Part shown: in pieces, positions 4,609 to 47,487 of the stretch | Position numbering within the stretch: the stretch's first letter is position 1 | Layout: each line of letters opens with the position of its first letter | Assembly (NCBI GenBank): GCA_963714695.1 | Contig: CAVQPQ010000008.1 | Location: forward strand, 180,656 to 244,655 | Length of the DNA stretch: 64,000 bases | Reading direction: 5' to 3' | From: an uncultured Verrucomicrobiae bacterium | GTDB lineage: Bacteria > Verrucomicrobiota > Verrucomicrobiia > Limisphaerales > UBA11358 | The notes under the pieces: model-generated | What the model was told of the DNA's origin: nothing | The model's database searches: none | Seen by the model: the letters and a program-made list of their open reading frames with translations, nothing else | Made by a program: the position numbers and the translations under genes

Positions 4609-7314
4609 GTGCGTGAGGAAATGCCGTCGAAGCTGTCTATAAATAAAATGTCTTCAACCATTTCCGGGCGGAACATCGCGGCGCGGGCGGCAACGGACAA
4701 CGCCGCCGTGCTCGTGCTTCGCCTGGCAGAAGCCGGCGACAACCACCGGTCGCTGGTGGGCGGCAAGGCATTCAATTTGGGCAAACTGATCGCGGCGGGC
4801 CTGCCGGTGCCGCGCGGCTTTTGTGTCACCACGACGGCGTTTGATCTCTTCCTGGCTTCGTGTCCGAGGCGGACTGAATTATCCCATCTGCTGGCGCAAT
4901 GTTCCGGCGCTGAGATTGGGCGGATCGCGGAATTGAGCCGGGAAATCCGCTCCTGCCTGGCAGAGGTTCAGGTGCCGGAGGCGGTGAAGGATGCGGTGCT
5001 GTCCGCGTGGCGGGAACCGGGTGGAGAGCGAAGCTTTGCCGTGCGTTCCAGCGCGACCGTCGAGGACGCCGCCGGGATGTCTTTTGCCGGTCAGTTTGAA
5101 TCCATTCTGAATGTGCGCGGGGCGGACGCGTTACTGGACGCCATCAAGACGTGCTGGCTGTCGCTTTTCTCCGACCGGGCGCTGGTTTACCTGGCGAAAC
5201 AGCGGATGCCGACGGAGCGGGTCAGGATGGCGGTGGTGGTGCAGGAAATGGTGGACGCCAGCCACGCCGGGGTGGTGTTCACCGCCGATCCGCTGACGGG
5301 AGCAACGGACCGGTTTGTCGTGGAATACGTGAGCGGCCTGGGCGAAGGGCTGGTGCAGGGGACGGTTCAGCCCAAGCGGGCAGTGGTTGAAAAACAAACC
5401 GGACGCGTGCTGGCTTCGCCTGAAAACGAACTGCTTTCGTCCGCAACTCTCGAAAACCTGTGCGATCTCGCCCGCCAGACCGAGCATCTTTTTGGTTCGC
5501 CGCAGGATATCGAGTGGGCGCAGCGGGATGGCGAACTGTTCCTGTTGCAGTCCCGCCCGATCACAACCAAAGCAACCAAAGCTCCAGCCAGGACGTGGGA
5601 GGACCGGCAGGTCTGGACCAATGTCAACACCGGCGAAGTGATGCCGGACGTGATGACGTCGATTACGTGGTCCATAATGCAATCCTTGTTTGGTGTGGTC
5701 GGTTCCATCTTTCGCCTGGTGGGCGCTGATATTACGCGCGCTCCGCTAGCGGGGCTCGTTGCCGGCAGACTCTATTTCAATGCCAACACGAGTTTGGCTG
5801 CGGTCAGACCATTTTCCTTCCTGCACAAGGGACTCCCAGATTTTGCCCGGGCGGCGGGAGGCGATCTGGTGGATGCCTACCGCCAGGCCCCGCTGACCCT
5901 TTCGCCGGAAGATCTCCCGAACCTGGGTTTCCGCTGGCCGAAATACTTCCTCTCATTGCCCCGCATCCTCTACGATGTCATCACCCATTCGTCCCGCCGC
6001 CGTGGTTATGCCAACTTGGCCCATTTTAAGAAGCAAACGGATGAACTCGACCGTCTGGACCTCGGGGCCATTTCCACACCGGAACTGACCCGGCTGTGCG
6101 TCCAATACATTCGGGAAGTTTTCAAAGACGCGGATGTGCTTTACTTGGCGACGCAGGGAGCGGTGCTGCCGGTGTTTTTGAAGGTCTGCCGCGATTGGCT
6201 GGGCGAACCCGGCTTGGCGCTCCGATTGTTCGCCGCGTTGGGCGGCATGCCGGTCGCGGAAGCCGGCCTGGCTCTCTGGCGACTGGCGGCGCTGGCTCAC
6301 GCCGACGGTGACACGGAGGCCGCGGTGTCTTCTGAAAACAGTTGGCCGGAGGTCCGCGCCAGGCTTTGCCGCACCGAACATGGCCGGAGATTCCTGGCCG
6401 CCTGGGATGCCTTCATGACCGAGCACGGACACCATTGCCGCGGCGAATTCGAGCTGTCCAACGCGCGCTGGTGCGAGACCCCTGATTACATCCTGGGGCT
6501 GGTGCGTGGCTATCTTCGCTCGCTGGGCCAGTCCGATCCGTTGGAAAACCAACGGCGGCTGGCGGAAGAGCGGGAACGCTTGACCGTCCAATGCCGCGCG
6601 CGGCTGAAGCATCCAATCAAACGCTGGATCTTCTCGCACTCGCTGCGCCGCGCGCAGGAACTGACCGTCTATCGCGAAAAGTTGAAGAGCCAGCTTGTCC
6701 GGCAGTTCGCCTTCACGCGCCGCGTTCTCCTGGTCCTCGGCCAGCGGCTCCACGAGCAGGGCAGTTTGTCCTGCCGCGACGACATTTTCTTCCTGGAAAT
6801 TTCCGAGCTGGAACTGGTCGCGACGGGCGGCGCTTCGTTCGATTGGCGCGGGCGCATCGAATCGCGCCGGCGGGAATACGAAAAAAACCTGAAGCTCAAC
6901 CCGCCGCGGGTCGTGAACGGAAGATTCGATCCCAATGTGCCCGACTGGCCGGTGGCAAACACGGACGCGAAACTTTTGGAAGGCATTCCGGTTTCTCCCG
7001 GCATCGCCACCGGGCCCGCCCGCGTGATTTTGCGCGCGGATGAACATGAGCAGGTTCTGCCCGGCGAAATTCTCATCGCTCCGTTCACCGATCCGGCATG
7101 GTCGCCGTATTTCATCACCGCCGCCGGCGTGGTCATGGAACAAGGCGGGATTCTTTCGCACGGCAGCATCGTCGCGCGCGAATACGGTCTGCCGGCGGTG
7201 ACCAACGTGGCCTTGGCCACGCGGGTCATTCGCACGGGCGACCTGGTGCAGGTGGATGGAAACCGCGGCCGCGTGAGCGTCCTCAAGCGTCTGGCCGAAG
7301 ACCACACTGCTTAG
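4609..7314 (+). CDS. PEP-utilizing enzyme, PEP synthase / rifampin-phosphotransferase-like architecture
   Basis: N-terminal ATP-grasp PPDK_N-type motif LVGGKAFNLGKL. C-terminal phosphohistidine swivel domain FTDPAWSPYF...GGILSHGSIVAREYGLPAV. ~900 aa. The true start may be an internal ATG (4621 or 4648). Confidence 0.8.
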   Translation: MREEMPSKLSINKMSSTISGRNIAARAATDNAAVLVLRLAEAGDNHRSLVGGKAFNLGKLIAAGLPVPRGFCVTTTAFDLFLASCPRRTELSHLLAQCSGAEIGRIAELSREIRSCLAEVQVPEAVKDAVLSAWREPGGERSFAVRSSATVEDAAGMSFAGQFESILNVRGADALLDAIKTCWLSLFSDRALVYLAKQRMPTERVRMAVVVQEMVDASHAGVVFTADPLTGATDRFVVEYVSGLGEGLVQGTVQPKRAVVEKQTGRVLASPENELLSSATLENLCDLARQTEHLFGSPQDIEWAQRDGELFLLQSRPITTKATKAPARTWEDRQVWTNVNTGEVMPDVMTSITWSIMQSLFGVVGSIFRLVGADITRAPLAGLVAGRLYFNANTSLAAVRPFSFLHKGLPDFARAAGGDLVDAYRQAPLTLSPEDLPNLGFRWPKYFLSLPRILYDVITHSSRRRGYANLAHFKKQTDELDRLDLGAISTPELTRLCVQYIREVFKDADVLYLATQGAVLPVFLKVCRDWLGEPGLALRLFAALGGMPVAEAGLALWRLAALAHADGDTEAAVSSENSWPEVRARLCRTEHGRRFLAAWDAFMTEHGHHCRGEFELSNARWCETPDYILGLVRGYLRSLGQSDPLENQRRLAEERERLTVQCRARLKHPIKRWIFSHSLRRAQELTVYREKLKSQLVRQFAFTRRVLLVLGQRLHEQGSLSCRDDIFFLEISELELVATGGASFDWRGRIESRRREYEKNLKLNPPRVVNGRFDPNVPDWPVANTDAKLLEGIPVSPGIATGPARVILRADEHEQVLPGEILIAPFTDPAWSPYFITAAGVVMEQGGILSHGSIVAREYGLPAVTNVALATRVIRTGDLVQVDGNRGRVSVLKRLAEDHTA

Positions 7315-14033: not shown

Positions 14034-14753
14034 TCACCAAAAATGCCAGGCTCCGCGCCAAACGACCCACAAACCGAGCAGAAAATTCGTGATTGCGTGC
14101 GCGGTCATCGCATCGCCAAGCCGGTTCTTGCGAATCACCAGCCATTGATAGGCCGCGCCGCATAAAATGCCGGCCAGCCACTCGTTGTGCGAAAAGCCGA
14201 AAACGGCGGCGGTGGCCAGAAACGGCGTCCAGGAAAAATGGTTGAGCGGGATGGCCTGGAAATCCGGTTTGGCGATGTAGCGATACAAAAACGAACGGTA
14301 AAAAACCTCCTCCAGCGGCGGCACGATGAACGTCGAACCGGCGATTCGCACCACAATAATCAACCACGCGAGCGCCGAACCATCACCAAATTGTGCATTG
14401 GGGTTCCAGGTTTTTAATGGAGCGCCCAAAGGATGGGTCAAGCCGAACTTTGCCCAAAGCGAGTTTTGCGTCGTCCATTCCCCGGTGATACCCACCCAGG
14501 CGACAAATACCGCCGCCCCCACCACGATTGCCTCCCAGCTGATCGCCCAGCGCATTTCGGAAACGAACGGGCGCATTTCCCAAATCAGCCACGCGCCAGC
14601 AAGTGTTTTGGCCAGATAAAACCAGTAGGCCGAGGCCGCGCCGAATATTCCCTGGCAAAACGTCAGCGCGAGGAAAATGACGAACGGCGCGACCCGGACG
14701 AACAACGGTGACGCGGCGAATGGTTTGCGCAAATACATCGGGTTAGAAACCAA
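14034..14753 (-). CDS. CPBP-family intramembrane metalloprotease (CAAX protease-like)
   Basis: Polytopic protein with EEVFYRSFLY, FGFSHNEW and HAITNF motifs (EExxxR / FxxxH / HxxxN). Confidence 0.8.
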   Translation of the reverse strand: MVSNPMYLRKPFAASPLFVRVAPFVIFLALTFCQGIFGAASAYWFYLAKTLAGAWLIWEMRPFVSEMRWAISWEAIVVGAAVFVAWVGITGEWTTQNSLWAKFGLTHPLGAPLKTWNPNAQFGDGSALAWLIIVVRIAGSTFIVPPLEEVFYRSFLYRYIAKPDFQAIPLNHFSWTPFLATAAVFGFSHNEWLAGILCGAAYQWLVIRKNRLGDAMTAHAITNFLLGLWVVWRGAWHFW

Positions 14754-15005: not shown

Positions 15006-15821
15006 TTAAACCTTAATGTTGCCTTCGAGTTCGCGGATGGCGCGGCCCACCAGCCGGAAGTTGATGCGTTTGCTGTGTTCCACAAAACCGGCGAGCAACG
15101 CCTTGTCACAAATGGAGTTGACCAGCCGGGGAATGCCGTGGCTGTAACCAAAAATCCTCCAGAACGCCGGCCCGGTAAAATGGGGCACGCCGTTGGCGCC
15201 GGCCAGTTCGAGCCGGTACTTGATGTATTGGACCACCTCGGCCCGGCTCAACGGCGCGAGATGATAACGCACCGAGATGCGCTGGCGCAACTGGCGGAGG
15301 CGCGGGCTGTCGAGCCGGGCGCGCAATTCCGGCTGCCCCATCAAAATGATTTGCAGCAGTTTGCGGTTGTCCAGTTCGAGATTTGACAAAAGCCGCACCT
15401 GTTCGAGCAATTCGTCGGTGAGATTTTGCGCCTCGTCAATGATCAGCACCACGTCCTTGCATTGCTCAACCTGATCGAGCAGAAAATTGTTGATGGCCGC
15501 GAGCGTGCCGTGCCGGTCCAGGTCTTTGACGTTCAGACGGAACTCCGTGCCAATGGCCTTCATCAATTCATCCGCGTTCAGCACCGGGTTGAGGATGACT
15601 GCGGTGGTAAAATTAATGTCGAGCTGCCGAAGCATCGCGCGGCAGATCGTCGTTTTGCCCGCACCGACCTCGCCGGTGAGCTGCACAAAGCCCTTGCGCT
15701 CCCGGATGCCGTAAAGCAGATGATTGTACGCCTCGCGATGCTTCCGGCTTTGAAACAGGAAGCGCGGGTTCGGCGTGAGGTCGAACGGCGACTGCTTTAA
15801 CTTGTAGAAGTCAAGATACAC
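15006..15821 (-). CDS. ExeA/GspA-like AAA ATPase
   Basis: FYKLKQSPFDLTPNPRFLF N-terminus. Walker A GEVGAGKTT. Walker B VVLIIDEAQNL. 271 aa. Confidence 0.85.
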   Translation of the reverse strand: MYLDFYKLKQSPFDLTPNPRFLFQSRKHREAYNHLLYGIRERKGFVQLTGEVGAGKTTICRAMLRQLDINFTTAVILNPVLNADELMKAIGTEFRLNVKDLDRHGTLAAINNFLLDQVEQCKDVVLIIDEAQNLTDELLEQVRLLSNLELDNRKLLQIILMGQPELRARLDSPRLRQLRQRISVRYHLAPLSRAEVVQYIKYRLELAGANGVPHFTGPAFWRIFGYSHGIPRLVNSICDKALLAGFVEHSKRINFRLVGRAIRELEGNIKV

Positions 15822-15954: not shown

Positions 15955-16911
15955 TTAGATTGTTGCTGATAGCATTTCCTCAATTGTCCAAGCGTGATCG
16001 GTCAATTTCGCTGCCATTGCCGGGGTCTGGCCGTGTGCCGAATGGACACGGCAGAAATTGAAGTGGGCAACGAACAGGGCAACGGCCAGTTTGTGGTTTT
16101 CCAGCTTCTTTGAGTGACCGAGGGTGCAACGGGTGAATCGGCGGGTGAAAGTCCTCACGGAAAGGTTTGTGCGCTCGGCGTGTGCGGTTGTCGCCATTGT
16201 TATGTCGGGATTGCCGATGCGACGGCGGCGGCGGAAGCCAATCACCTGACGCGGCAGGAATTCGCCCGGCTTGCCAAAGTATTTCGTTTCGGTGCAATAA
16301 TCCACTTCCTTGCCAAACACGGATGCGACCGTGCCACCGACACCGGAATAGCCCTTGTAGCCGTCCGTTACCAGTTGCATCCGGTTTGCCATGCGGGTTT
16401 TCAAGTCCCCAAAAAATTGATCTGCGTTATCGCGTGTGCGCTTGCCGACAAGCCAATTGATTATCAGCTTTGAATCGCGGGCAACGGAAAGAAAAGTGAA
16501 CTGGCCGCCGCGTTCGGTTTCTTTCGGCAATGCGTTTTCCTGACGACACCCGACAAAAGTATAAACCTCGTCCGCTTGAACCACGCTGGCGTTCACGTTG
16601 CGGACTTTGGCGTCCAGAAACGCAGCGGCCTTTTGTCCGGCAGTTTCGAGGATGTTCAAAACCGTTTCCTGATTCAAACCTGTCAGGCGGGAAACGGCGC
16701 GGATGCCCATTGATTCACAGAGCAAGTTTACCACTTGGCAGGCTTGTTTGAAGTCCACACGCAAGCCATCCAGCGGTTGCGATTCGCTCATTGTTTTACC
16801 GCATTTCAAACAGCGGTAACGCTGGACAATGCGGTTATGATTTTGGAAACGACCAAACTTCTTGGTTTCACCGGAGCAACAATAACAGTTCACTTGACCT
16901 TTTCCGGCCAA
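15955..16911 (-). mobile_element. IS1-family transposase gene (single fused ORF); element ends not resolved
   Basis: N-terminal zinc finger CYCCSGE...CLKCGKT and an HTH-like region. DDE region with QADEVYTFV, LVTDGYKGY and HAERTNLSVRTFTRRFTRCTLGHSKKLENH, which closely resembles the IS1 InsB C-terminus. I could not define terminal inverted repeats by eye. Confidence 0.8.
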
Positions 16912-17038
16912 GTCCTAAAGTGGTTATGTATCTTTGATCGGATACCACTGAAGGCTTCGGCCTTTGGTTGCGCCCTGTCGGTGTTAGAAGCACTGGCAGG
17001 GCTTTGTTTTGTATTCAGTTCACATGGGTATTATATGC

Positions 17039-17052
17039 TTGCTTGCAAGCAA
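17039..17052. promoter_or_regulatory. perfect 14-bp palindrome TTGCTTGCAAGCAA (candidate operator)
   Basis: Embedded in ATGCTTGCTTGCAAGCAATGCAAGCAT. Further GCTTGC/GCAAGC half-sites occur at ~17055, ~17070 and ~17107, flanking the promoter of the P63C-like gene. Confidence 0.5.
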
Positions 17053-17077
17053 TGCAAGCATTATTTTTAGCAAGCAC

Positions 17078-17105
17078 TTGACTTTCTTTCTGGTCGTGAT
17101 AATCT
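17078..17105 (+). promoter_or_regulatory. putative sigma70-type promoter
   Basis: TTGACT (17078-17083), 16-nt spacer, TAATCT (17100-17105). The ATG at 17115 follows within ~10 nt. Confidence 0.5.
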
Positions 17106-17114
17106 GTGCTTGCT

Positions 17115-18179
17115 ATGAACGAAGAACATGAATTCAAACTTGAAAATGACTCCGTGCAATCTCTGGGGGGTAAAGCGCGGGCGGAAAAGCTTTCCAAACG
17201 GGACAGGGTTGAAATTGCACGAGCGGGGGCAGAGGCAAGGTGGGCAAAGCATCCAGATCGGCCACGATTGCCAAAAGCCACCCATGCCGCGCCATTGAGG
17301 ATTGGAGAGGCTACAATTGATTGCGCTGTCTTGGAGGATGGAACACGGGTTATCAGCCAAAGCAGCTTCTTGCGGGCGATAGGACGCTCTACAAGGCCAG
17401 CGGCGGGGCAAGGAAGCACTACATTGAACCGCGCCGTCGAAGAGAGCGTTGGCATCGAAGAAATGCCTCCTTTTCTGCCTTCAAAGAATCTTAAACCGTT
17501 TATCAGCAATGACTTAATGTTGTCGAAGAATCCAATTGCATATAAACCCCTGGCGGGGGGGCGAATTGCCTTTGGCTACAAGGCTGAAATTCTCCCAATG
17601 GTCTGTTACGCCTATATTGATGCGAGCAAGGCGGGAGTAATCCTAAAAACGCAAGCCCATGTTGTGCGGGCGGCGGAAACAATTATTCGCGGTTTGGCAA
17701 CCGTTGGTATCATCGCCCTGATTGACGAAGCCACTGGTTATCAAAAGGTGCGTGATCGTCTGGCTTTGCAAAAAATCCTCGATGCTTATCTGCGAAAGGA
17801 ATTGGCAGCCTGGGCAAAAAGATTCCCAAATGAGTTTTACGAAGAAATGTTTCGATTGCGAAATTGGCAGTGGAACGGAATGTCAGTCAAACGCCCCGGA
17901 TTTGTCGGGAAACTGACAAATGATCTGGTTTATGAGCGGCTTGCGCCGGCACTGTTGGATGAACTTGAACGTAAAAACCCGGTGTTGGAAACAGGACACA
18001 GAAAATCACGTCATCATCAATGGTTGTCTGATGACATTGGAATTCCTGCATTGGCACAACACATTCACGCCGCCATTGCGCTGATGCGGGCGTCTGACAC
18101 CTGGTCAACCTTTTACGGGATGATTAACCGCGCCCTGCCGAAGAAACGAGGCCAGTTGCCGCTTTTGATTGAAGCCTAA
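17115..18179 (+). CDS. phage-type P63C-domain-like protein
   Basis: ORF 17106..18179. N-terminal GGKARAEKLSKRDRVEIARAGAEARWAK. Then PLRIGEATIDCAVLEDGTRVISQ and LIDEATGYQKVR...FPNEFYEEMFRLRNW...KRPGFVGKLTNDLVYERL. From memory this matches phage P63C-domain proteins. AT-richer than the flanking chromosome. Confidence 0.6.
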   Translation: MNEEHEFKLENDSVQSLGGKARAEKLSKRDRVEIARAGAEARWAKHPDRPRLPKATHAAPLRIGEATIDCAVLEDGTRVISQSSFLRAIGRSTRPAAGQGSTTLNRAVEESVGIEEMPPFLPSKNLKPFISNDLMLSKNPIAYKPLAGGRIAFGYKAEILPMVCYAYIDASKAGVILKTQAHVVRAAETIIRGLATVGIIALIDEATGYQKVRDRLALQKILDAYLRKELAAWAKRFPNEFYEEMFRLRNWQWNGMSVKRPGFVGKLTNDLVYERLAPALLDELERKNPVLETGHRKSRHHQWLSDDIGIPALAQHIHAAIALMRASDTWSTFYGMINRALPKKRGQLPLLIEA

Positions 18180-18200
18180 AGATTTTAGCATACAATCTCT

Positions 18201-19130
18201 TTATGGGCGAGCTGCCACATGGCCATTATTTTTATTCAGTAAAAGCACTGTGTGACTAATGATTTCCACTTTGGTGTAAGGACAACCATTATTAGTAACT
18301 TCAACGAAAAGTTCATTTACAAATGGTGTGTTTTCAAATACGTGGTTTTTAAATTTAATTGGGTCAATGTCTTTAATTCCATGTTTCGCCATACAGCTAT
18401 CCAATGCATTTTTCATTACACGTTTGTGATCAAAGCGTGTTTTCAAATAAGCGCGGGTACGGCGATGGCATATATTTTCAGCCACCCCATAGGTTTCCAG
18501 CCACCAATTATAGTACTTTTGAACGGTTTCCGTTGCTTGTTGGCTGATGAAATCCGCCTCGTTTTTAAAACATTCTGCCTCGTGTTCAAACGTAGCAATT
18601 GAAGCCTCAATTTGATATGTCGGGCAAAGCAGTTCATCTTCTTGATCGGGAGATGGTAATTGAATGGGACAAGAGACATCCCCTGTGGTTATGTCGAAAT
18701 TTTTTGCATATTGGTCTGCATATAATAACTCGTGTGCAATTGCTTCCGTTCGTGGCGCAATTGATTTCAACCATTCCGTTTTATTTTGATGGGGTGCCAA
18801 TGGTCGAAACCGGTCTCGATTAACACAAATATAGAACGCAAGTACCGGGTATTCACGAAAGCTGCCGTCCTTTTGCGAAACTTTTTTATTTTCCCCTTTT
18901 CTCCACCTATTAAAAAAGATCGTCGTCTTGGAACTGTGATTTGGAAAATAATCTTGGAAACTATATTCCAAAATTATCGGCTGAAAGTAAAACCCCCGCC
19001 CCCACGAACAATGCAGTTGCGTCATTATCATGCGATAACAACTTTTCCCTTCAAATTCCCGTTTTAGATCCTCCCCCAAAGGATTAGGGCAACATTGAAG
19101 CAATACTAAATGTGGGTCAAATTCCCTCAT
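18201..19130 (-). CDS. hypothetical protein (orphan, AT-rich islet)
   Basis: 309-codon ORF with clearly AT-rich codon usage. Cys/His/Trp-rich. No recognisable family. Confidence 0.55.
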   Translation of the reverse strand: MREFDPHLVLLQCCPNPLGEDLKREFEGKSCYRMIMTQLHCSWGRGFYFQPIILEYSFQDYFPNHSSKTTIFFNRWRKGENKKVSQKDGSFREYPVLAFYICVNRDRFRPLAPHQNKTEWLKSIAPRTEAIAHELLYADQYAKNFDITTGDVSCPIQLPSPDQEDELLCPTYQIEASIATFEHEAECFKNEADFISQQATETVQKYYNWWLETYGVAENICHRRTRAYLKTRFDHKRVMKNALDSCMAKHGIKDIDPIKFKNHVFENTPFVNELFVEVTNNGCPYTKVEIISHTVLLLNKNNGHVAARP

Positions 19131-19166
19131 AAAGGTGTTAATGAATTATCCTAACCTGAATGTAAC

Positions 19167-19195
19167 AAAAAGGCTTCCTTTTGGGAAGCCTTTTT
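19167..19195. terminator. bidirectional rho-independent terminator-like hairpin
   Basis: AAAAAGGCTTCC-TTTTG-GGAAGCCTTTTT. An 8-bp GC-containing stem is flanked by an A-run and a T-run. It lies downstream of the small ORF 19226..19435. Confidence 0.6.
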
Positions 19196-19225
19196 GTAAC
19201 AAAATTTATTTATTTTTATGGCCTG

Positions 19226-19435
19226 CTAAAAATCTCTTGTTTTAGAGTGTGCAGGCTTTGATATTTCAGATTGATAATCTGGTTCAATGGCGGCAATTGG
19301 CCCGTCAATGACCTTCTTTAAATCAGCCTGGGATATTGGCTGATTGTCAGCGCAGTGCATGGCAAATATCCCGTATTTGTTATCAGGAACGGGATGCGTG
19401 CAATTCTGTATGGGGTTTTTTGTCATATAGGCCAC
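19226..19435 (-). CDS. hypothetical small protein
   Basis: 69-codon ORF in the AT-rich islet, followed by the terminator hairpin. No family recognised. Confidence 0.35.
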   Translation of the reverse strand: MAYMTKNPIQNCTHPVPDNKYGIFAMHCADNQPISQADLKKVIDGPIAAIEPDYQSEISKPAHSKTRDF

Positions 19436-20174
19436 CTCCTCACCGAGTGTGCCTTCTTTGGTTTAGGTTTTTGTTTATTTTTCTATGGTTTTTCGACAAA
19501 TTATTCAGCAATTAACATGACTCCACGCACTTTCGGGCGTTGCAAATATAGCACACTTCCGAATTTAACGCAAATCGGGTACTGCGATTACAACATGCTT
19601 GACTCAAAAAGTCAACAAATTTTATTAACATTTTATTCACAAAATCACCTAATTTGAAGCATATTAAATACCACCAAAAAAGTATTTTAAAGTCAAATTT
19701 TAAAAATGGCCCAAAAGTGTCATATAATAAGGCATTTTAGTCATATTCAATACGTCTCAAATTTCTAAAACTTTCATTTCCTCGGCATTGGTTCGATTCG
19801 CCAATTGAACAAAATGTTCAAAAATACGCATCCAAAATGCATAAATCTGCAACTCTTGCTTCCGCCTCAGTCATCCAGATCAACGATCTCCCGATCAAAT
19901 GTCGGGACATTTCTGTCCCAAAATCGCTTCTGTTCCCCCGACCAACGGTGTGGCGGTGTAGAAAAATCCAGCACGCCCCGCCTCCATGACGGCAACGTAA
20001 ACCACCTTGCTAATTATGCAAATTAGAAATTTATATCGCTCTTTTTCCCCGCGTCAATCCAGAGGAAAACGATGCATTTTTTTTGGTTAAGTTCCTCTAC
20101 TGACCCCGGCAACAAAGCAACCGAGCAGCGCCAATATGGAGGGGATGGTATCCGCGCCCCCACGACCCATATGG

Positions 20175-21299
20175 TCAATTGAGAATCACTCTGGCAGCCC
20201 GGGCCAAGGCTTCCGCTTCCGCCGCTGTGCCAATCGTGATTCGCAGATAATTTCTCACCTCCGGTTGATTGAACCAGCGTACCAGGATTTTGCGGGCGCG
20301 CAGCTTTTGCAGCCATTCTTCCGCCGAAAATCGCGGCGGCTGGACAAGAATGAAATTCGTCTGGCTGGGTAAAACCCGGAAACCGAGTTTCGTCAACTCG
20401 CGACTTAATTCATCTCGCGTGGCGATGATCCTTTTGAAATTCGCCCGGTAATACGGCAGGTCGTCCAGCGCGGCTTCGGCGGCAATCTGGCCGAGGCCGT
20501 TCACGTTGTAACTGTCCCGAATCTTGTGCAGCGCGCCGATGAGTTCCGAGGGACCGACGAAATAGCCGACGCGCTGGAAGCACAGCGAATACGCCTTCGA
20601 GAAAGTTCGCGCCGCGAGCACGCGCGGATATTTCAGCGCCAGAGCCATCGCGTTCTCCTCCGCGAAATCCACATACGCTTCATCGAGCACGACGACGCCC
20701 TTGTGAGCGCGGCAGAGTTCGTCCAGTTCTTTGGTCGAGTAGCCGCGACCGCTCGGCGCATTCGGCGTGGTGACGAATGTCAAGGCCGCGCGAAAATCCC
20801 AAACCTTGCCGAGTTTCAATTCGCGCAGGGCCGGCAGGCTGAAATCCGGGTTGAGCGGCAGGGCGTTTTTCACCGCGCCATGGATGTCCGCCAGCACCGG
20901 ATACAGCGAGTAGCTCGGCGTGAAGTATTGGACCAACGACCTTGGACTTTGGACTTTGGACTTTAGACCCGGCTCGGCGAAGCCGCGCACCGCCAGCGCC
21001 AGCAATTCATCCGAGCCGTTGCCCGCGATGACATTCTCCGGCTGGCAGCCATGCAACTTCGCCAGTTTTTCCCGCAACCGCTCCGCCGTCGGGTTCGGAT
21101 ACAGCCGCAACCGCCCGTCCACCGCCGCCTTGACCGCCGCCAGCACCTTCGGTGACGGCGGATACGGATTCTCGTTGGTGTTGAGTTTGATCAACCCTTT
21201 GATCTTCGGCTGCTCGCCATAGACGTAAGGGTGCAACTCCCGCACGAGCGGACGGATTAGCGATTGCGGATTGCGGATTGCGGATTGCGAATTAGGCAT
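20175..21299 (-). CDS. hisC: histidinol-phosphate aminotransferase
   Basis: Class-II aminotransferase. LNTNENPYPPSP and the PLP-lysine context RTFSKAYSL. The N-terminus (MPNSQSAIRNPQSAIRNPQS) is encoded by tandem heptamers, so the true start is uncertain. Confidence 0.9.
   Translation of the reverse strand: MPNSQSAIRNPQSLIRPLVRELHPYVYGEQPKIKGLIKLNTNENPYPPSPKVLAAVKAAVDGRLRLYPNPTAERLREKLAKLHGCQPENVIAGNGSDELLALAVRGFAEPGLKSKVQSPRSLVQYFTPSYSLYPVLADIHGAVKNALPLNPDFSLPALRELKLGKVWDFRAALTFVTTPNAPSGRGYSTKELDELCRAHKGVVVLDEAYVDFAEENAMALALKYPRVLAARTFSKAYSLCFQRVGYFVGPSELIGALHKIRDSYNVNGLGQIAAEAALDDLPYYRANFKRIIATRDELSRELTKLGFRVLPSQTNFILVQPPRFSAEEWLQKLRARKILVRWFNQPEVRNYLRITIGTAAEAEALARAARVILN
20929..20970. 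repeat. six degenerate heptads (TGGACTT type) inside hisC
   Basis: TGGACCA ACGACCT TGGACTT TGGACTT TGGACTT TAGACCC. Encodes LKSKVQSPRS on the hisC strand. Confidence 0.8.
21255..21296. repeat. tandem heptamer GATTGCG x4-6 at the hisC 5-prime end
   Basis: GATTAGC GATTGCG GATTGCG GATTGCG GATTGCG AATTAGG. Confidence 0.9.
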
Positions 21300-21308
21300 G
21301 GGTTCAAT

Positions 21309-21743
21309 TCAAATTACACACAGGTTTTCCATCTTGGCAAGGCATACGGCGGAAATGGGAATTCCATTGTCAAATGTCGCAAGCCTTCCGCCGTGCTTGC
21401 CCGCCAGCGCCAGCAGATAAAGATCGGTTAGTTGCCGCGAACTGTGAATGCGCTCCGCCATGAAAATTTTCTCGTCGCGTAACGAAACATCGTCCGGCCA
21501 GAATTCGTGATTGGTTTGCCCGGCAAATGTTTGCAACCTTGAAATCAAATCGCCCGGGGTGAAACGCGTGTGCTGGCTGTATCCCGGATTCGACATGATG
21601 CGAATGACGCCATTTTCCACGATCGGGCAGCTTGCCCATCCTGATTTTGCATTTCGCGCCCACCAATCGTGCGCCCGCTCATGGAACGCTTGGTCGGGAT
21701 CAAGCAACGCGATGACAACGTTTGCATCCAGCAAGGCGCGCAT
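21309..21743 (-). CDS. vapC: PIN-domain toxin (VapC family)
   Basis: MRALLDANVVIALLDPDQAFHERAHDWW. 144 aa. 3 nt downstream of the antitoxin ORF. Confidence 0.85.
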   Translation of the reverse strand: MRALLDANVVIALLDPDQAFHERAHDWWARNAKSGWASCPIVENGVIRIMSNPGYSQHTRFTPGDLISRLQTFAGQTNHEFWPDDVSLRDEKIFMAERIHSSRQLTDLYLLALAGKHGGRLATFDNGIPISAVCLAKMENLCVI

Positions 21744-21746
21744 GGA

Positions 21747-21986
21747 TTACACGCCCTCCTCGTCCTGTATTTTTTGCACGTGCTCCAAGGTTACCAGTTC
21801 CCCCCGGGAAGGCAGCACTGGAACGCCGCCGCGCAGGCCCGAACGATTTTTCCGCCCCGCCACCGGCATGACCAACCCGCGCCGCGCCAGGTCGGAAATC
21901 ACCTTTCCCGCCGTGCCCCCCTCGCGTTGCGCCAGTTCCTTTGCCGCCTGCAACACGTCATCCTCAATGTCCAAAGTCGTTCTCAT
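21747..21986 (-). CDS. vapB: VapB-type antitoxin
   Basis: MRTTLDIEDDVLQAAKELAQREGGTAGKVISDLARRGL, a typical small antitoxin paired with this PIN subfamily. Confidence 0.8.
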   Translation of the reverse strand: MRTTLDIEDDVLQAAKELAQREGGTAGKVISDLARRGLVMPVAGRKNRSGLRGGVPVLPSRGELVTLEHVQKIQDEEGV

Positions 21987-21993
21987 GTATCTG

Positions 21994-22022
21994 ATGTTAC
22001 TGCATCACCGCATCAATGTCAA
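21994..22022 (-). promoter_or_regulatory. putative sigma70-type promoter of VapBC cassette 3 (leaderless)
   Basis: Minus strand: TTGACA (22017-22022), 17-nt spacer, TAACAT (21994-21999), then 7 nt to the ATG at 21986. Confidence 0.5.
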
Positions 22023-22027
22023 AAGGT

Positions 22028-22120
22028 TTTTGATCTTCGGCTGCTCGCCCGGCACATGGCGTGCAGATCGCACACCAGCGGGCGGATCAAATTTTTCAAA
22101 CCGCTTTTATTCAACCACAT
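22028..22120 (-). pseudogene. degenerate second copy of the hisC 5-prime end
   Basis: Minus strand reads ATG TGG TTG AAT AAA AGC GGT TTG AAA AAT TTG ATC CGC CCG CTG GTG ... GAG CAG CCG AAG ATC AAA. About 45 of 63 nt match hisC codons LIRPLVRELHPYVYGEQPKIK (21198-21260), with a 1-nt gap that breaks the frame. Confidence 0.7.
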
Positions 22121-22152
22121 CGGAATCAATGCCGTGCCAGTCGCCTTGATTT

Positions 22153-23001
22153 TTATTTCACGGGTGGCTCAGGCGTCTCAGTTGCTACCGGTTGAGGTGG
22201 GGAATTGGTGGACGCATCAGGTTTCACTGCCGTCACGGTATCGGTTCCGGCAAGTTCATCAGGCAGAATGGTGATGGCAATGCGGCGGTTCCTGGCTCTT
22301 CCCTCGGCGGTCGCATTGTCGGCAAGAGGGCGATACTCGCCATAACCGATGGCCCCGACGCGGCGCGGATTCACGCCCGCCTTTTCGGTGAGGAAATGCA
22401 CGGCGGCCAGGGCGCGGGCGGTGGAAAGTTCCCAGTTGCTGGCGAACCGATTACGGGCTTCGGGCCGGATAGGCACGTTGTCCGTATGACCGATGACGTG
22501 AATCTTCAGTTGGGGATGTTCGGCGAGAAGTGCTGCAATCTTACGCATCACGGATTCCCCGGCTGGTTTCAAGATCGCCTCGCCGGAATCAAACATGACA
22601 CGGTCGAGGATGTTCACGGTGAGCTTGCCCTGCAGATTGGAGATGGTGACATCCTTGGATTCGAGGTCGGCGCGCATTTCATTTTCGAGGCCTTTTGCCA
22701 TCTGGGCGGCGGTGTCCTTTTCCTGTTCCAGATCGGCAACCTTGGATTGCAGGGCCGCAATCTGGTCTTTGTCCTTCTGGTTTTCGTCCCGGGCGCTGGC
22801 GAGGCTGGCGTTGGCATCATCCAGTTTGGTCCGGAGCGATTCCAGTCCGCGTTGTTTGCCCACGGCCGAGGCCCAGAGCAGCAATGACACAACCAACAGA
22901 ACGGCAAGGATGCCGGCGGCAATCCAGCCCCACCGGGAGGCGTCCGGGCCGCGTTTGGCCCTGGTCACATATTCAGTAAATGGTTGTTTGCCTTCGCTCA
23001 T
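22153..23001 (-). CDS. OmpA/MotB-domain membrane protein with coiled-coil linker
   Basis: ORF 22153..23277 trimmed to MSEGKQPF...WGWIAAGILAVLLVVSLLLW (TM). C-terminal OmpA-like HVIGHTDNVPI...SNWELSTARALA...GYGEYRPLADNATAEGRARNRRIAI. Confidence 0.8.
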   Translation of the reverse strand: MSEGKQPFTEYVTRAKRGPDASRWGWIAAGILAVLLVVSLLLWASAVGKQRGLESLRTKLDDANASLASARDENQKDKDQIAALQSKVADLEQEKDTAAQMAKGLENEMRADLESKDVTISNLQGKLTVNILDRVMFDSGEAILKPAGESVMRKIAALLAEHPQLKIHVIGHTDNVPIRPEARNRFASNWELSTARALAAVHFLTEKAGVNPRRVGAIGYGEYRPLADNATAEGRARNRRIAITILPDELAGTDTVTAVKPDASTNSPPQPVATETPEPPVK

Positions 23002-23454: not shown

Positions 23455-23482
23455 GATTTCAGATTGCGGATTGCGGACTGGT
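23455..23482. repeat. tandem heptamer GATTGCG (2 perfect + 2 degenerate units)
   Basis: GATTTCA GATTGCG GATTGCG GACTGGT, immediately upstream of the ORF start at 23452. Confidence 0.8.
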
Positions 23483-28931: not shown

Positions 28932-28959
28932 CAATTCGCAAATCGTAAATCGTAATTTC
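28932..28959. repeat. tandem heptamer AAATCGT-type repeat in a 5-prime leader
   Basis: AATTCGC AAATCGT AAATCGT AATTTCC, directly upstream of the zinc-ribbon gene start. Confidence 0.7.
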
Positions 28960-32007: not shown

Positions 32008-32181
32008 AATTGCGATTTGCCAAGGCCCCCGGATTTTACTACGGTTTTCCCCGTGCCAGTTCAACCGAACACAACGACCACATTTTAGCGTTCATTCCCG
32101 AAAATGGAATGGACGCCAACGCCTCTGACAGACTGTCCGGGGCGTTTTTTGTTTGGTGAACACAACCGCAGATAAACAAAG

Positions 32182-32613
32182 ATGAACGCAGATGATTTTC
32201 CAGACTTGCACGCCGGAAAGGGTGACGCCTACCCGTGCAAAGAGGAGACTCGGGCAATTATTGGCTGCGCGTTTGAGGTGCTGAACGAGCTGGGGCACGG
32301 ACTCAATGAAAAGCTTTATGAAAATTCGCTGGTGGTCGAATTCAAGCGGCGGGGCATGGCCTTTGACCAGCAATGCCGATTCGATGTGCTCTATAAAGGC
32401 GAGCCTGTTGGCGAGTTTATTCCGGACTTGATCGCTTGTGGCAAAGTCGTCGTGGACGCCAAGACCATTGAGTGCATCACCGACCATGAACGCGGGCAGA
32501 TGTTGAATTACCTTCGCATTACTGGACTGCCGGTCGGATTGATTCTGAATTTCAAGCACGCCCGTCTGGAATGGGAAAGAATTGCATTAACAACCGCAGA
32601 TAAACGCAGATGA
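32182..32613 (+). CDS. GxxExxY protein (PD-(D/E)XK nuclease superfamily paralog family)
   Basis: IIGCAFEVLNELGHGLNEKLYENSLVVEF contains the family G-x-x-E-x-x-Y motif. DLIACGKVVVDAKT and GLILNF follow. Start and stop codons both lie in CGCAGATGAA decamer repeats. Confidence 0.8.
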   Translation: MNADDFPDLHAGKGDAYPCKEETRAIIGCAFEVLNELGHGLNEKLYENSLVVEFKRRGMAFDQQCRFDVLYKGEPVGEFIPDLIACGKVVVDAKTIECITDHERGQMLNYLRITGLPVGLILNFKHARLEWERIALTTADKRR

Positions 32614-32738
32614 ACGCAGATAAAAATCAAATATCATGGCAGACAATGCGCAAAAAGCCGGGAGTCCTTCGGTGCCTTCCTCAAAGCGGCGGCTCCGCCG
32701 CCGAAAGAATCTGCGTTCATCTGCGTCCATCTGCGGTT
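32592..32738. repeat. 30-bp inverted repeat built from CGCAGAT(A/G)AA decamers
   Basis: AACCGCAGATAAACGCAGATGAACGCAGAT (32592-32621) versus ATCTGCGTTCATCTGCGTCCATCTGCGGTT (32709-32738). 27/30 complementary. Confidence 0.85.
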
Positions 32739-45705: not shown

Positions 45706-45772
45706 CACAGATGAAACACGGATGAAACACAGATTTTCGGAACTTGAAACTGAAAACTGAAAGCTTGAAACT
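45706..45772. repeat. tandem 11-mers (CACAGATGAAA type) followed by tandem heptamers (TGAAACT type)
   Basis: CACAGATGAAA CACGGATGAAA CACAGATTTT, then TGAAACT GAAAACT GAAAGCT TGAAACT. Together they fill almost the whole pyrF-hisD divergent spacer. Confidence 0.85.
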
Positions 45773-45778
45773 GTTGTC

Positions 45779-47071
45779 ATGAAAGTCATCCGCCATACCG
45801 ATGCGAACTTTGCCGCCAAACTGCACGAGCTGTCCGCACCGTCCAGCCTGTTCGATCCCGTCATCGAACAACGCACCCGCGCCATCCTCGATGCCGTTCA
45901 AGCCCGCGGCGACGCCGCGCTGCTGGAATTCACCGAAAAATTCGACGGCGCAAAACTCGCCGCCGGCCGGCTGGCCATCACGCAGGCGGAATTGTTCAAC
46001 GCCTCGCTGGCCGCCGACGAATCGCTCCGCGCCGCCGTGGCCGAAGCGGAGAAAAACATCGTTGCGTTCGCCAAAAAGTCGCTGCTCAAAAACTGGCAGA
46101 TGAAAAATTCGCATGGCGCGATCGTCGGCGAGAAATTTGATCCGTTCCGGCGCGTGGGAGTTTACATCCCCGGCGGCCAGGCGCCGCTGGTTTCGACGGC
46201 GCTGATGACGGCCGCGCTGGCGAAGGCGGCCGGCTGCCCGGAAATCGTCGCTTGCACTCCCTGCGGTCGGGACGGCTCCATCAATCCGGCGCTGTTGTTC
46301 GCAACGCGGGCGGCCGGGGCCACGGAAATTTACCGCGTCGGCGGCGCGCAGGCCATCGCGGCCATGGCTTACGGCACCAAGACGATCCGCCGCGTGCAAA
46401 AAATCTTTGGTCCGGGCAACGCCTATGTCAGCACGGCCAAACGACTGCTTTTTGGCCACGTTACCATTGATTTGCTGGCCGGTCCGAGCGAGCTGCTCGT
46501 GCTTGCGGACGAAACGGCGAACCCGAAATTCGCCGCCGCTGATTTGCTGGCGCAGGCCGAACACGGCTCCGGCCACGAGCGCGTCTGGCTCGTGACGACT
46601 TCGGGAAAAATCATCAAGGCCGTCCAAGGTGAAATTGCGAAACAACTGCCCAGGCAAGCGCGCCGTGAGCTCATCCGGCGCGTGTTGGATGAAAACACCT
46701 GGCTGATTCAAGTGGCGACGCTGGCCGACGCAGTGGTGCTGGCAAACCGGCTCGCGCCGGAGCATTGCGAAGTGATGACGCGTAATCCGCGCAAGCTCTC
46801 GGAAAAGATTCTGACCGCCGGAGCCATTTTCCTCGGTCCGTGGTCGCCAACGGTGCTGGGCGATTACGTGGCCGGGCCGAGCCACACGCTGCCAACCGGC
46901 GGCGCGGGCGCGTCGTTTGCCGGCCTGACCGTGGACCAGTTCCAGCGCCGCACCAGCGTCGTCGAATACACCCGCGCCTCGCTCAAGAGAGCGCTGCCCG
47001 CCGTGAAAAAATTCGCGGAACTCGAAGGCTTGGGTGCGCATGGAAAAAGCGCGGAGATACGACCCTCGTAA
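45779..47071 (+). CDS. hisD: histidinol dehydrogenase
   Basis: 430 aa. Conserved GPGNAYV, AGPSE, LAQAEHG and HTLPTGG motifs. Confidence 0.92.
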   Translation: MKVIRHTDANFAAKLHELSAPSSLFDPVIEQRTRAILDAVQARGDAALLEFTEKFDGAKLAAGRLAITQAELFNASLAADESLRAAVAEAEKNIVAFAKKSLLKNWQMKNSHGAIVGEKFDPFRRVGVYIPGGQAPLVSTALMTAALAKAAGCPEIVACTPCGRDGSINPALLFATRAAGATEIYRVGGAQAIAAMAYGTKTIRRVQKIFGPGNAYVSTAKRLLFGHVTIDLLAGPSELLVLADETANPKFAAADLLAQAEHGSGHERVWLVTTSGKIIKAVQGEIAKQLPRQARRELIRRVLDENTWLIQVATLADAVVLANRLAPEHCEVMTRNPRKLSEKILTAGAIFLGPWSPTVLGDYVAGPSHTLPTGGAGASFAGLTVDQFQRRTSVVEYTRASLKRALPAVKKFAELEGLGAHGKSAEIRPS

Positions 47072-47487
47072 ATCGTCAGCACGATGGCAGCGCGTTGTTT
47101 GGCCGGCAGCTTCATTAAGGCGGCCTGCACCTCCCCGCCAGGCCCATCGGCGCCGGGTTCGGATTGAGAAACGGTGTTTGATTCGGCCCATTGGGTGTGG
47201 ATTTGATCGCGGCGCATCTCCCGCTGCCGCCAGTTCAAGCAGGTGTTGACCGCAATCCGATAAAGCCACGAGGAGAACTTTGCCGTGCCCTGGTAGGAAT
47301 CCAGTTGCCGGTAAGCGCGGATGAAAGTTTCCTGGGCCAGATCTTCGGCATCGGCCAGCGAACCCGTCATCCGGAATGTCAGCGAATGGATCATGCGTTG
47401 ATGGGCGCGTATCAGTAATTCAAAAGCCGCAGGATTGCCATCCCGGCTTTGCAACACCCAGTTTTTTTCCTCATCCGTGTCGCTCAT
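47060..47487 (-). pseudogene. ECF sigma factor lacking the region 4.2 helix-turn-helix (truncated)
   Basis: Regions 2 (DLAQETFIRAYRQLDSY...FSSWLYRIAVNTCLNW) and 4.1 (LPAKQRAAIVLTIYEG) are present. The ORF then runs antisense into the hisD 3-prime end (46864-47071), with no sigma-like sequence in any frame. Confidence 0.6.

Follow-up and report, generated by a model that had tools for sequence, protein, structure and literature searches.

How does a toxin-antitoxin (TA) operon come to lie between an essential biosynthetic gene and a second, broken copy of that gene's own start? The question is raised by a stretch of 64,000 nucleotides (nt) from an uncultured Verrucomicrobiae bacterium (contig CAVQPQ010000008.1 of assembly GCA_963714695.1; hereafter the window), in which the interval between hisC and a short copy of its 5′ end (the stub) is occupied by exactly one promoter-vapB-vapC unit of ~0.75 kb, as the original prediction of a complete promoter-antitoxin-toxin cassette had it. 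Our comparison of the window with 160 related loci reveals that direct repeats of the target regularly flank this vapBC family; the best-sampled targets are the 5′ ends of hisC and uppS, the genes into which the cassette reads. Furthermore, several TA families stack at the hisC and uppS sites, with a stub before most or all cassettes where stubs are seen.

The comparison set (labels L###) is composed of 80 genome loci and 80 metagenome loci. The genome loci, labelled mostly as Verrucomicrobia or Limisphaerales metagenome-assembled genomes (MAGs), were obtained by a scan with HisC, one genome per species (70–81% amino-acid (aa) identity), and the 80 further loci by a metagenome scan using a VapC alignment. 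Every relative is a MAG or a metagenome contig, and certain loci duplicate each other, e.g. L019 and L082–84.

The repeated start of hisC and the cassette behind it

On the minus strand, positions 22028–22090 align with positions 21198–21260 of the hisC start with 47 of 64 columns identical, including an identical 21-nt core common to both copies (GGCGAGCAGCCGAAGATCAAA), so that the earlier hand count of ~45 of 63 nt is borne out. The local alignment score of the stub with hisC is 49, compared with 15.1 ± 2.0 (maximum 24) for 1000 shuffles and 27 for the second-best match of the stub on either strand of the window, and chance similarity of the two copies is rejected on these scores. The stub has its own ATG at position 22120, as originally predicted, but at a distance of 32 nt, not 33 nt, from the TAA of the OmpA/MotB-like gene. 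Its translation comprises this start with the leader MWLNKSGLKN, then LIRPLVCDLHA and, after a −1 frameshift, GEQPKIK, and covers only the hisC residues equivalent to ~14–34. Specifically, one T of intact HAYVPG-type hisC genes, CACGCC(T)ATGTGCC, is absent from the stub (CACGCC-ATGTGCC), and therefore the 1-nt gap reported to break the upstream copy, and the frameshift, are real. The stub ends ~6 nt ahead of the vapB −35 hexamer. The alignments thus show the stub to be a genuine, decaying relic of a hisC 5′ end. The frameshifted stub also reads as a 36-codon open reading frame (ORF; window 22019–22129), whose TGA stop lies within the vapB −35 hexamer (TTGACA), an overlap that is probably a coincidence.

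The two copies in the window are different alleles. The stub is of HAYVPG type and the window hisC of HPYVYG type; the stub is 90–92% identical to the functional hisC starts of L100, L088, L048, L091 and L033. It shares 93% identity with the L136 stub over 45 nt, but only ~73% with its own hisC. A simple recent in-situ duplication is therefore insufficient, and the mismatch requires later gene conversion or exchange, or import of the cassette plus the adjacent hisC start. The closest relative of the window is L021, with 90.7% nt identity over the whole of hisC and 91.4% in the next gene; the differences between the two hisC genes are most concentrated within an 18-nt patch close to the 5′ end, and L021 reads RAYVPG versus HPYVYG in the window.

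The coding sequences on both sides of the vapC-hisC junction match their families above the model cut-offs (Table 1), the TIGR01141 equivalog match spanning residues 16–368 of HisC. Among the acidic residues of VapC, D6, E43 and D107 are invariant in eight homologues, while D125 is kept in seven of the eight (H in L043). VapB has sub-threshold Pfam matches only (PF09957 VapB_antitoxin, E = 0.0035, and RHH_4); 3 nt separate its stop from the vapC ATG, and vapB always accompanies vapC in the related loci (62–99% aa identity). The hexamers of the vapB promoter span 22022–21994, and the promoter carries TGATGC / (G/A)CATCA repeats, presumed to be the VapBC operator. The arrangement TTGAC-TGATGC-GTGATGC-TAGCATCAGATGC-ATG is kept in nearly all related loci.

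Table 1. Coordinates of the features of the hisC locus in the window; scores are followed by the model cut-off in brackets.
Feature	Position	Strand	Basis
hisC, histidinol-phosphate aminotransferase, 374 aa	20175..21299	-	TIGR01141 297.6 bits (> 276.55); PF00155
Functional copy of the repeated hisC 5′ segment (LIRPLVRELHPYVYGEQPKIK)	21198..21260	-	Alignment with 22028-22090
AATCCGC heptamer tract, hisC codons 3-13	21253..21293	-	TRF: period 7, 5.9 copies
vapC, PIN-domain toxin, 144 aa	21309..21743	-	TIGR00028 95.4 bits (> 73.6); PF01850 E = 1.2e-8
vapB antitoxin, 79 aa (MRTTLDIEDDVL...)	21747..21986	-	Sub-threshold Pfam; upstream of vapC in relatives
vapB promoter TTGACA-17-TAACAT	21992..22022	-	Consensus scan, 10/12 matches
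hisC 5′ stub, pseudogene fragment	22028..22120	-	Alignment; similarity to relatives' hisC starts
OmpA/MotB-like gene	22153..23001	-	PF00691
hisD, ancestral upstream partner of hisC	45779..47071	+	tblastn, 85% identity to L041 hisD

Cassettes and stubs at hisC, uppS and other targets

The ancestral gene order at this locus is a divergent pyrF-like gene, hisD, hisC, an AAA-ATPase gene (window 15006–15821) and the gene at window 14034–14753. The empty site is the hisD-hisC junction. In 26 of the 80 genome loci, 24–27 nt separate the end of hisD from the LIRPLV codon; in 9 more the hisD-hisC spacing is 18–60 nt, and the remaining genome loci contain 0.1–3.7 kb of inserted DNA between hisD and hisC.

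Members of the same vapBC family occupy the hisC start in ~30 loci, the majority of which have stubs. In particular, vapBC of 83–95% aa identity lies directly before hisC in L004, L019, L030, L036, L043, L048 and L060, and hisC-linked vapBC is also present in ~20 metagenome loci. Stubs of hisC are positioned upstream of vapB in L004, L019, L048 and most cassette-bearing metagenome loci. The leader M(P/S)N(P/S)Q..LIRPLV is common to every cassette-linked hisC gene, and these genes start 9–30 nt after the vapC stop. The leaders of the stubs, including that of the window, differ from these gene leaders and resemble the starts of cassette-free hisC genes (MNKTSLKN...), and stubs tend to be similar to the hisC gene of the same genome (L004, L019 and L048). 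The proposal that cassette-linked hisC is always of HPYVYG type proved false, since L048 and L021 are of HAYVPG type, and the class of the stub is not a clean phylogenetic marker, with class-1 ends in both vapBC clades. In L019, a GC-rich hairpin resembling the REP type (GGAGTTCCGCG...CGGAACTCC; 5175–5230) lies between the hisC stub and the vapB promoter.

Two loci represent erosion intermediates of the cassette. In L005 (5990–6030), vapB is kept and vapC is deleted precisely, with the vapC ATG now fused to the hisC leader (ATGCGC joined to AATCCACAATCG), while in L021 (4900–5050) only part of vapB, its 3′ half, is left before hisC. The hisC gene of L021 also contains a −1/+1 frameshift pair ~110 nt apart, which is either real or an assembly error. 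A contig from a relative joins a vapB remnant to hisC in an L021-like arrangement.

The hisC site also accommodates other TA families, comprising Gp49/HigB-like plus XRE in L041 and L047 (antitoxin only in L036), PemK/MazF-like in L028 and L057, and DUF433 plus DUF5615 in L014 and L040. In L041, a hisC stub (MKVSSFIRPPVRELHPCVYGEQPVM, ending in a stop) is positioned in front of the HigBA-like pair, the only such locus with a stub among the other TA families.

A second target is uppS (PF01255). Nine full-length cassettes precede uppS and form a sister clade that is monophyletic except for one nested other-context locus (L142); L120 groups with them, its contig being cut before uppS. Each uppS locus contains a stub of the uppS start of 32–161 nt, usually with leader and ATG, which ends 5–16 nt before the vapB −35 hexamer. 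Several of these loci are arrays, with five copies of the uppS start in L138 (four stubs and the gene), four in L116 and three in L150. Each annotated interval of an array contains either a TA pair or a lone antitoxin-like gene as the remainder of such a pair, and the TA types comprise DUF433/DUF5615, a second PIN pair, HigBA-like and vapBC. A further array pair consists of a small antitoxin-like ORF and a 104-aa putative ParE/RelE-like toxin, assigned by eye and not by a hidden Markov model (HMM).

Two more targets flank antisense-oriented cassettes, namely the start of a DUF5615 gene, present as an 86-nt repeat in L089, and a gene resembling indolepyruvate ferredoxin oxidoreductase (by eye), whose leader and first five codons form a 77-nt repeat in L114. 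At all four targets the repeat abuts the vapB promoter within 0–20 nt, and the target resumes 18–140 nt after the vapC stop. Stubs of target gene starts are a general signature of this vapBC family and, at these sites, of other TA families. Short GCCGA-containing repeats flank the cassettes in L154 and L135.

The 3′ ends of the stubs recur at similar sequences. The ends of the hisC stubs cluster at GAGCAGCCGAAG in three vapBC lineages and in the L041 HigBA-like cassette, and those of the uppS stubs cluster at the similar GAGCGCCGAAG and recur at GAGCGCCGA(AG) across cassettes of different families. The shared motif is located at positions 21205–21216 of hisC in the window and at the uppS starts of L116, L138 and L150, with the stubs ending in or just after it. 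Longer, variable stubs also exist, reaching +50 to +160 nt in uppS; the class-2 stubs of hisC run to about codon 48. The motif may be a preferred crossover or cleavage site, or may recur by chance.

The unit in the window contains vapB and vapC only, and its kind of flanking repeat, of variable length (32–161 nt), is unlike the fixed-length target duplication of insertion sequences and transposons. No transposase was found in the window vapBC unit, a result obtained with no dedicated search for terminal inverted repeats. Likewise, no recombinase gene lies between stub and gene in the window, in L041 or in the L116 and L138 arrays, and none of the ORFs that recur in hisD-hisC gaps or are listed for these two arrays looked like an integrase, no IntI HMM scan of all ORFs having been run. 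The repeats are copies of the target gene start and not attC sites.

Rearrangement, transcription and tandem repeats at the window locus

In the window, hisD is located 25 kb from hisC on the opposite strand. Its left neighbour is the pyrF-like gene, syntenic in 57 loci, while its right neighbour, an ECF-sigma-like gene whose 3′ end adjoins it, is non-syntenic. The original prediction expected an empty site with the hisC start right after the OmpA-like gene; this expectation is not borne out, since no OmpA-like homologue is found near hisC in any of the 160 related loci. The native neighbour of hisC is hisD, and the OmpA-like gene is rejected in this role. The OmpA/MotB-like gene rather appears to mark a rearrangement breakpoint, and one inversion of ~22121–47071 would restore the order hisD-stub-vapBC-hisC. 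The apparent breakpoints are at window 22121–22152 and 47072–47080. In L100 (2705–2851) and L136 (2969–3085), a second partial copy of the hisD 3′ end is found downstream of the intact hisD, and therefore junction duplications can include the end of the upstream gene.

The gap between the vapC stop and the hisC ATG is 9 nt, with no terminator-like site between them. Metatranscriptome contigs, assembled and of sparse coverage, span the vapC-hisC junction with 0 mismatches (X16, 21260–21361; X21, 21260–21365; X22, 21271–21421), and one contig spans the vapB-vapC junction (X16, 21600–21822), which supports co-transcription of vapBC and hisC. None of the matching metatranscriptome contigs covers the stub. 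The window cassette appears to form one transcription unit with hisC, which lost its hisD partner by rearrangement. The locus is present in soil and peat metagenomes.

The N-terminus of the window HisC reads MPNSQSAIRNPQSLIRPLV, one SAIRNPQ unit fewer than had been given earlier. The AATCCGC heptamer tract in this region is an in-frame expansion of +21 nt (3 × 7; SAIRNPQ) relative to the relatives. The expansion is absent in L019, L060, L043 and L030, which read MPNP(Q/K)-LIRPLV, and present in L004, L013, L036, L131 and L102, of which L013 has no cassette. The claim that a heptamer block supplies the hisC start fails, because the ATG lies upstream of the tract and, with the MPN(P/S)Q leader, is conserved in relatives without the expanded tract, so that the heptamers are ruled out as start-codon donor. 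A phase-variable switch was also considered for the heptamers and rejected, the reading frame being intact in all hisC starts read. Heptamer arrays are frequent in this genome, with 8 in 64 kb.

A second in-frame heptamer array within hisC (20938–20968; AAGTCCA × 4.4) encodes GLKSKVQSPRS; orthologue identity collapses around it, and the L021 version has diverged. Tandem repeats of 7–11 nt are unusually frequent in the window (23462–23477, 28936–28955, 45706–45773, 51792–51863, 53896–53926 and 32167–32735). Short tandem repeats are often positioned just 5′ of gene starts, e.g. AAACTGA × 3.9, which ends 6 nt before the hisD ATG. AATCCGC repeat words reach 300–1800× the contig depth in soil metagenomes and metatranscriptomes, indicating that they are common in the community. 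On the other side of hisC, a low-GC island of ~4.3 kb (15955–20100; 37–42% GC versus ~57%), found in the window only, separates hisC from the conserved downstream AAA-ATPase gene and contains three ORFs without homologues in 80 related loci.

Spread of the cassettes and its significance

The distribution and the sequence similarity of the cassettes show that cassettes have been exchanged between lineages. In a neighbour-joining tree of the two downstream genes (trees were built without support values), the cassette loci are scattered in two distant clades amid cassette-free relatives. With synonymous divergence (dS) approximated via third-codon-position identity, L004 and L036 share 96.5% in vapC versus 76.6% in hisC and 67–89% in the downstream genes, and L019 and L060 share 80.5% in vapB versus 61.7% in hisC and 51–62% in the downstream genes. 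A sliding-window comparison shows that homology begins abruptly at the vapB −35 hexamer and steps down at the end of vapC. In the vapBC tree, likewise a neighbour-joining tree, the hisC-linked cassettes form two separate clades, with cassettes from other contexts nested in one of them. In these nested cassettes the vapC stop is still followed by a decayed hisC leader, and the left flank retains the same motif (TTTCCCTTGAAAAC); therefore the unit carried scraps of hisC when it moved. The footprint of cassette mobility that was originally read from the window alone is thereby upheld and generalised, through empty sites, patchy distribution, cassettes more similar than their flanks, and stubs of other target genes. 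Each of the two readings offered for that footprint, a long target duplication at insertion and an imported TA-hisC segment, gains some support: the presence of flanking repeats at four different targets speaks for duplication, or for repeats formed upon insertion, and a stub and a hisC of different alleles call for later exchange or import. Two joints in run X6 that skip the cassette were considered as excision products and rejected; 2 or 20 letters at the joint have no match and the matched sides are short, and the joints are read as probable hisC genes of relatives with HAYVPG-type starts.

The explanation that we consider probable, with moderate confidence, is that the stub was displaced when a promoter-vapB-vapC unit arrived at the hisD-hisC junction, the unit belonging to a repeat-bracketed family. 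Within this explanation, spread driven by homology between stub and gene is our best guess at the mechanism and carries somewhat less than half of the weight. In this mechanism, a founding insertion would create a direct repeat of 30–160 nt of the target start, leaving both the end of the upstream gene and the target gene intact, so that an insertion at an operon junction or gene start would survive. The cassette with its short copy of the target start would then resemble, in its behaviour, an integron cassette that lacks an integrase. Stub and gene start would recombine in a RecA-type reaction that excises the unit as a circle, and the stub and the gene would serve as two homology arms for entry into an empty site or for a swap with a resident cassette in relatives, regardless of the upstream DNA. 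The toxin, through post-segregational killing, would select against loss by recombination between the repeats; only addictive cargo would resist such loss, and we propose that TA pairs are therefore enriched and stacked. The allele mismatch in the window, with its HAYVPG-type stub and HPYVYG-type gene, could be a by-product of such exchange.

Several points weigh against this explanation. A process driven purely by homology cannot give a new target its stub, although flanking repeats are found at no fewer than four targets, and the clustering of the stub ends suggests a favoured cleavage or crossover site rather than free homologous exchange. No hisC stub is detectable in the vapBC-hisC loci L030, L036, L043 and L060, and neither an excised circle nor a same-strain empty-site allele was seen in public runs. 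Part of the excess synonymous similarity of the cassette could be due to constraint instead of transfer, and the RNA contigs could derive from DNA carry-over. Repeats of this length in MAG and metagenome contigs could also be mis-assembled, which is less likely because many independent assemblies show the same arrangement.

The recurrence of stub ends at GAGCAGCCGAAG in hisC and at GAGCGCCGA(AG) in uppS, across cassette families, could instead reflect site-specific insertion by a trans-acting recombinase or nuclease encoded elsewhere. Such an enzyme would act at a core of approximately GCCGAAG on a circle carrying the first codons of the target, and would turn the native start into a stub (attL) and place the start carried by the cassette before the gene (attR), much as for integron cassettes or SXT at prfC, in which the enzyme is not encoded elsewhere. 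The array architecture, the finding that in uppS arrays the next copy often begins exactly at the ATG directly after the preceding toxin stop, and the separate leader of each hisC cassette type are consistent with this process. We nonetheless regard it as unlikely: no recombinase gene was seen in or next to the cassettes or among the recurrent hisD-hisC gap ORFs, in a scan that was not exhaustive; the other stubs are longer and variable in length; the repeats of L089 and L114 lack the motif and flank cassettes of opposite orientation; and the coincidence of the motif has a chance probability of only ~1e-3, a rough value estimated post hoc.

Cassette-specific leaders, the visible series of TA loss and erosion, and the presence in many loci of up to 3.7 kb of unrelated accessory genes in the hisD-hisC gap would also fit remnants of larger integrative elements that inserted at the hisC or uppS start with a replacement 5′ end, as SXT/R391 does at prfC, the rest being deleted and repeated integrations giving the arrays. 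This origin is quite improbable, as the tight limits at four targets (0–20 nt and 18–140 nt) would need independent deletions trimmed alike, no integrase remnants were noticed, and the arrays consist of tightly packed TA pairs only. Most improbable of all is one ancient insertion per target followed by vertical descent, many losses and gene conversion that keeps the stub similar to its gene, with no ongoing mobility. The ranking of cassette similarity broadly tracks the ranking of flank similarity, the single leader in all hisC-linked cassettes fits a single founder, and the usual likeness of a stub to its own gene also fits this reading; however, certain pairs have a cassette far more similar than its flanks, as in the vapC of L004 and L036, the hisC-linked cassettes fall in two vapBC clades with other-context ones nested in one, more than 10 losses are needed on the downstream-gene tree, and the stub allele of the window differs from its own gene. 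Purely vertical descent fits the data worst among the readings.

A broader view, which we offer tentatively and hold to be doubtful, is that Limisphaerales-type Verrucomicrobia possess an integron-like TA cassette system without a linked integrase. A copy of a gene start (hisC or uppS) would be its recombination site, and insertion, takeover of transcription, stacking and exchange between lineages would proceed by host homologous recombination or by a trans-acting enzyme cutting GAGC(A)GCCGAAG. TA cassettes are conspicuous members of integron cassette arrays, including those of sedentary chromosomal integrons, and are regarded as stabilising them. The arrays described here resemble them in being ordered series of small, promoter-proximal cassettes separated by a recurring repeat that resembles a recombination site. 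They differ in that no intI, attI or attC was seen, the repeat consists of the first 30–160 nt of the target, each cassette has its own promoter, and an essential gene ends the array.

Among larger elements, SXT/R391 inserts into the 5′ end of prfC, and e14 and phage 21 insert into icd, with a replacement gene end supplied. As in these cases, insertion within a coding sequence is tolerated because the insert supplies a replacement end in frame, which in the loci described here consists of start codon and leader, and the displaced native end stays as a stub; as in SXT/R391-type elements, the inserted DNA can supply the promoter of the target gene. Unlike SXT/R391-type elements, the units described here comprise only promoter, antitoxin and toxin, with no integrase or larger element, their repeats are 32–161 nt long, and one family has several targets. 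Homology-facilitated illegitimate recombination is reported to occur during natural transformation. An anchor in hisC with an illegitimate join would leave the recipient 5′ end as a stub and would match the allele mismatch of the window. Alone, this process does not predict recurrent stub ends, arrays, or repeats around antisense cassettes.

The loci also resemble chromosomal type II TA 'islets', described as lying between two core genes without mobile-genetic-element genes (Hayes & Van Melderen 2011, as cited in PMC13617665). A study of Photorhabdus (Belot et al., Mol Biol Evol 2026; PMC13617665) describes as an open question the movement of chromosomal TA modules that lack any mobile-element genes. 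A spread through homologous recombination in the flanking core genes is proposed there, and the only repeat reported is a 24-bp palindrome duplicated around one TA system. Like these islets (PMC13617665), the cassettes studied here are lone small TA operons amid housekeeping genes, patchy, clustered in spots and subject to toxin-first erosion. Unlike them, they have a long direct repeat of the downstream gene start, are fused to the transcription unit of that gene and form stub-delimited arrays. Full-text searches of the literature turned up no account of TA cassettes bounded by stubs of essential-gene starts, and the stub-cassette-gene layout, which is repeated in many related soil bacteria, points to a manner of cassette spread that we have not found described.

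These loci offer a concrete, testable answer to the question of how chromosomal TA systems move without mobile-element genes. The repeat of the target start would preserve the essential gene, give two homology arms for excision and spread, and allow stacking. The natural intermediates, comprising empty sites, single cassettes, arrays with up to four stubs, toxin-deleted remnants and moved cassettes with scraps of hisC, are suited to reconstruction of the process. The TA promoter appears to have taken over the expression of hisC, a biosynthetic gene, or of uppS, a cell-wall gene, and such promoter capture would tie the loss of a selfish element to the loss of an essential function.

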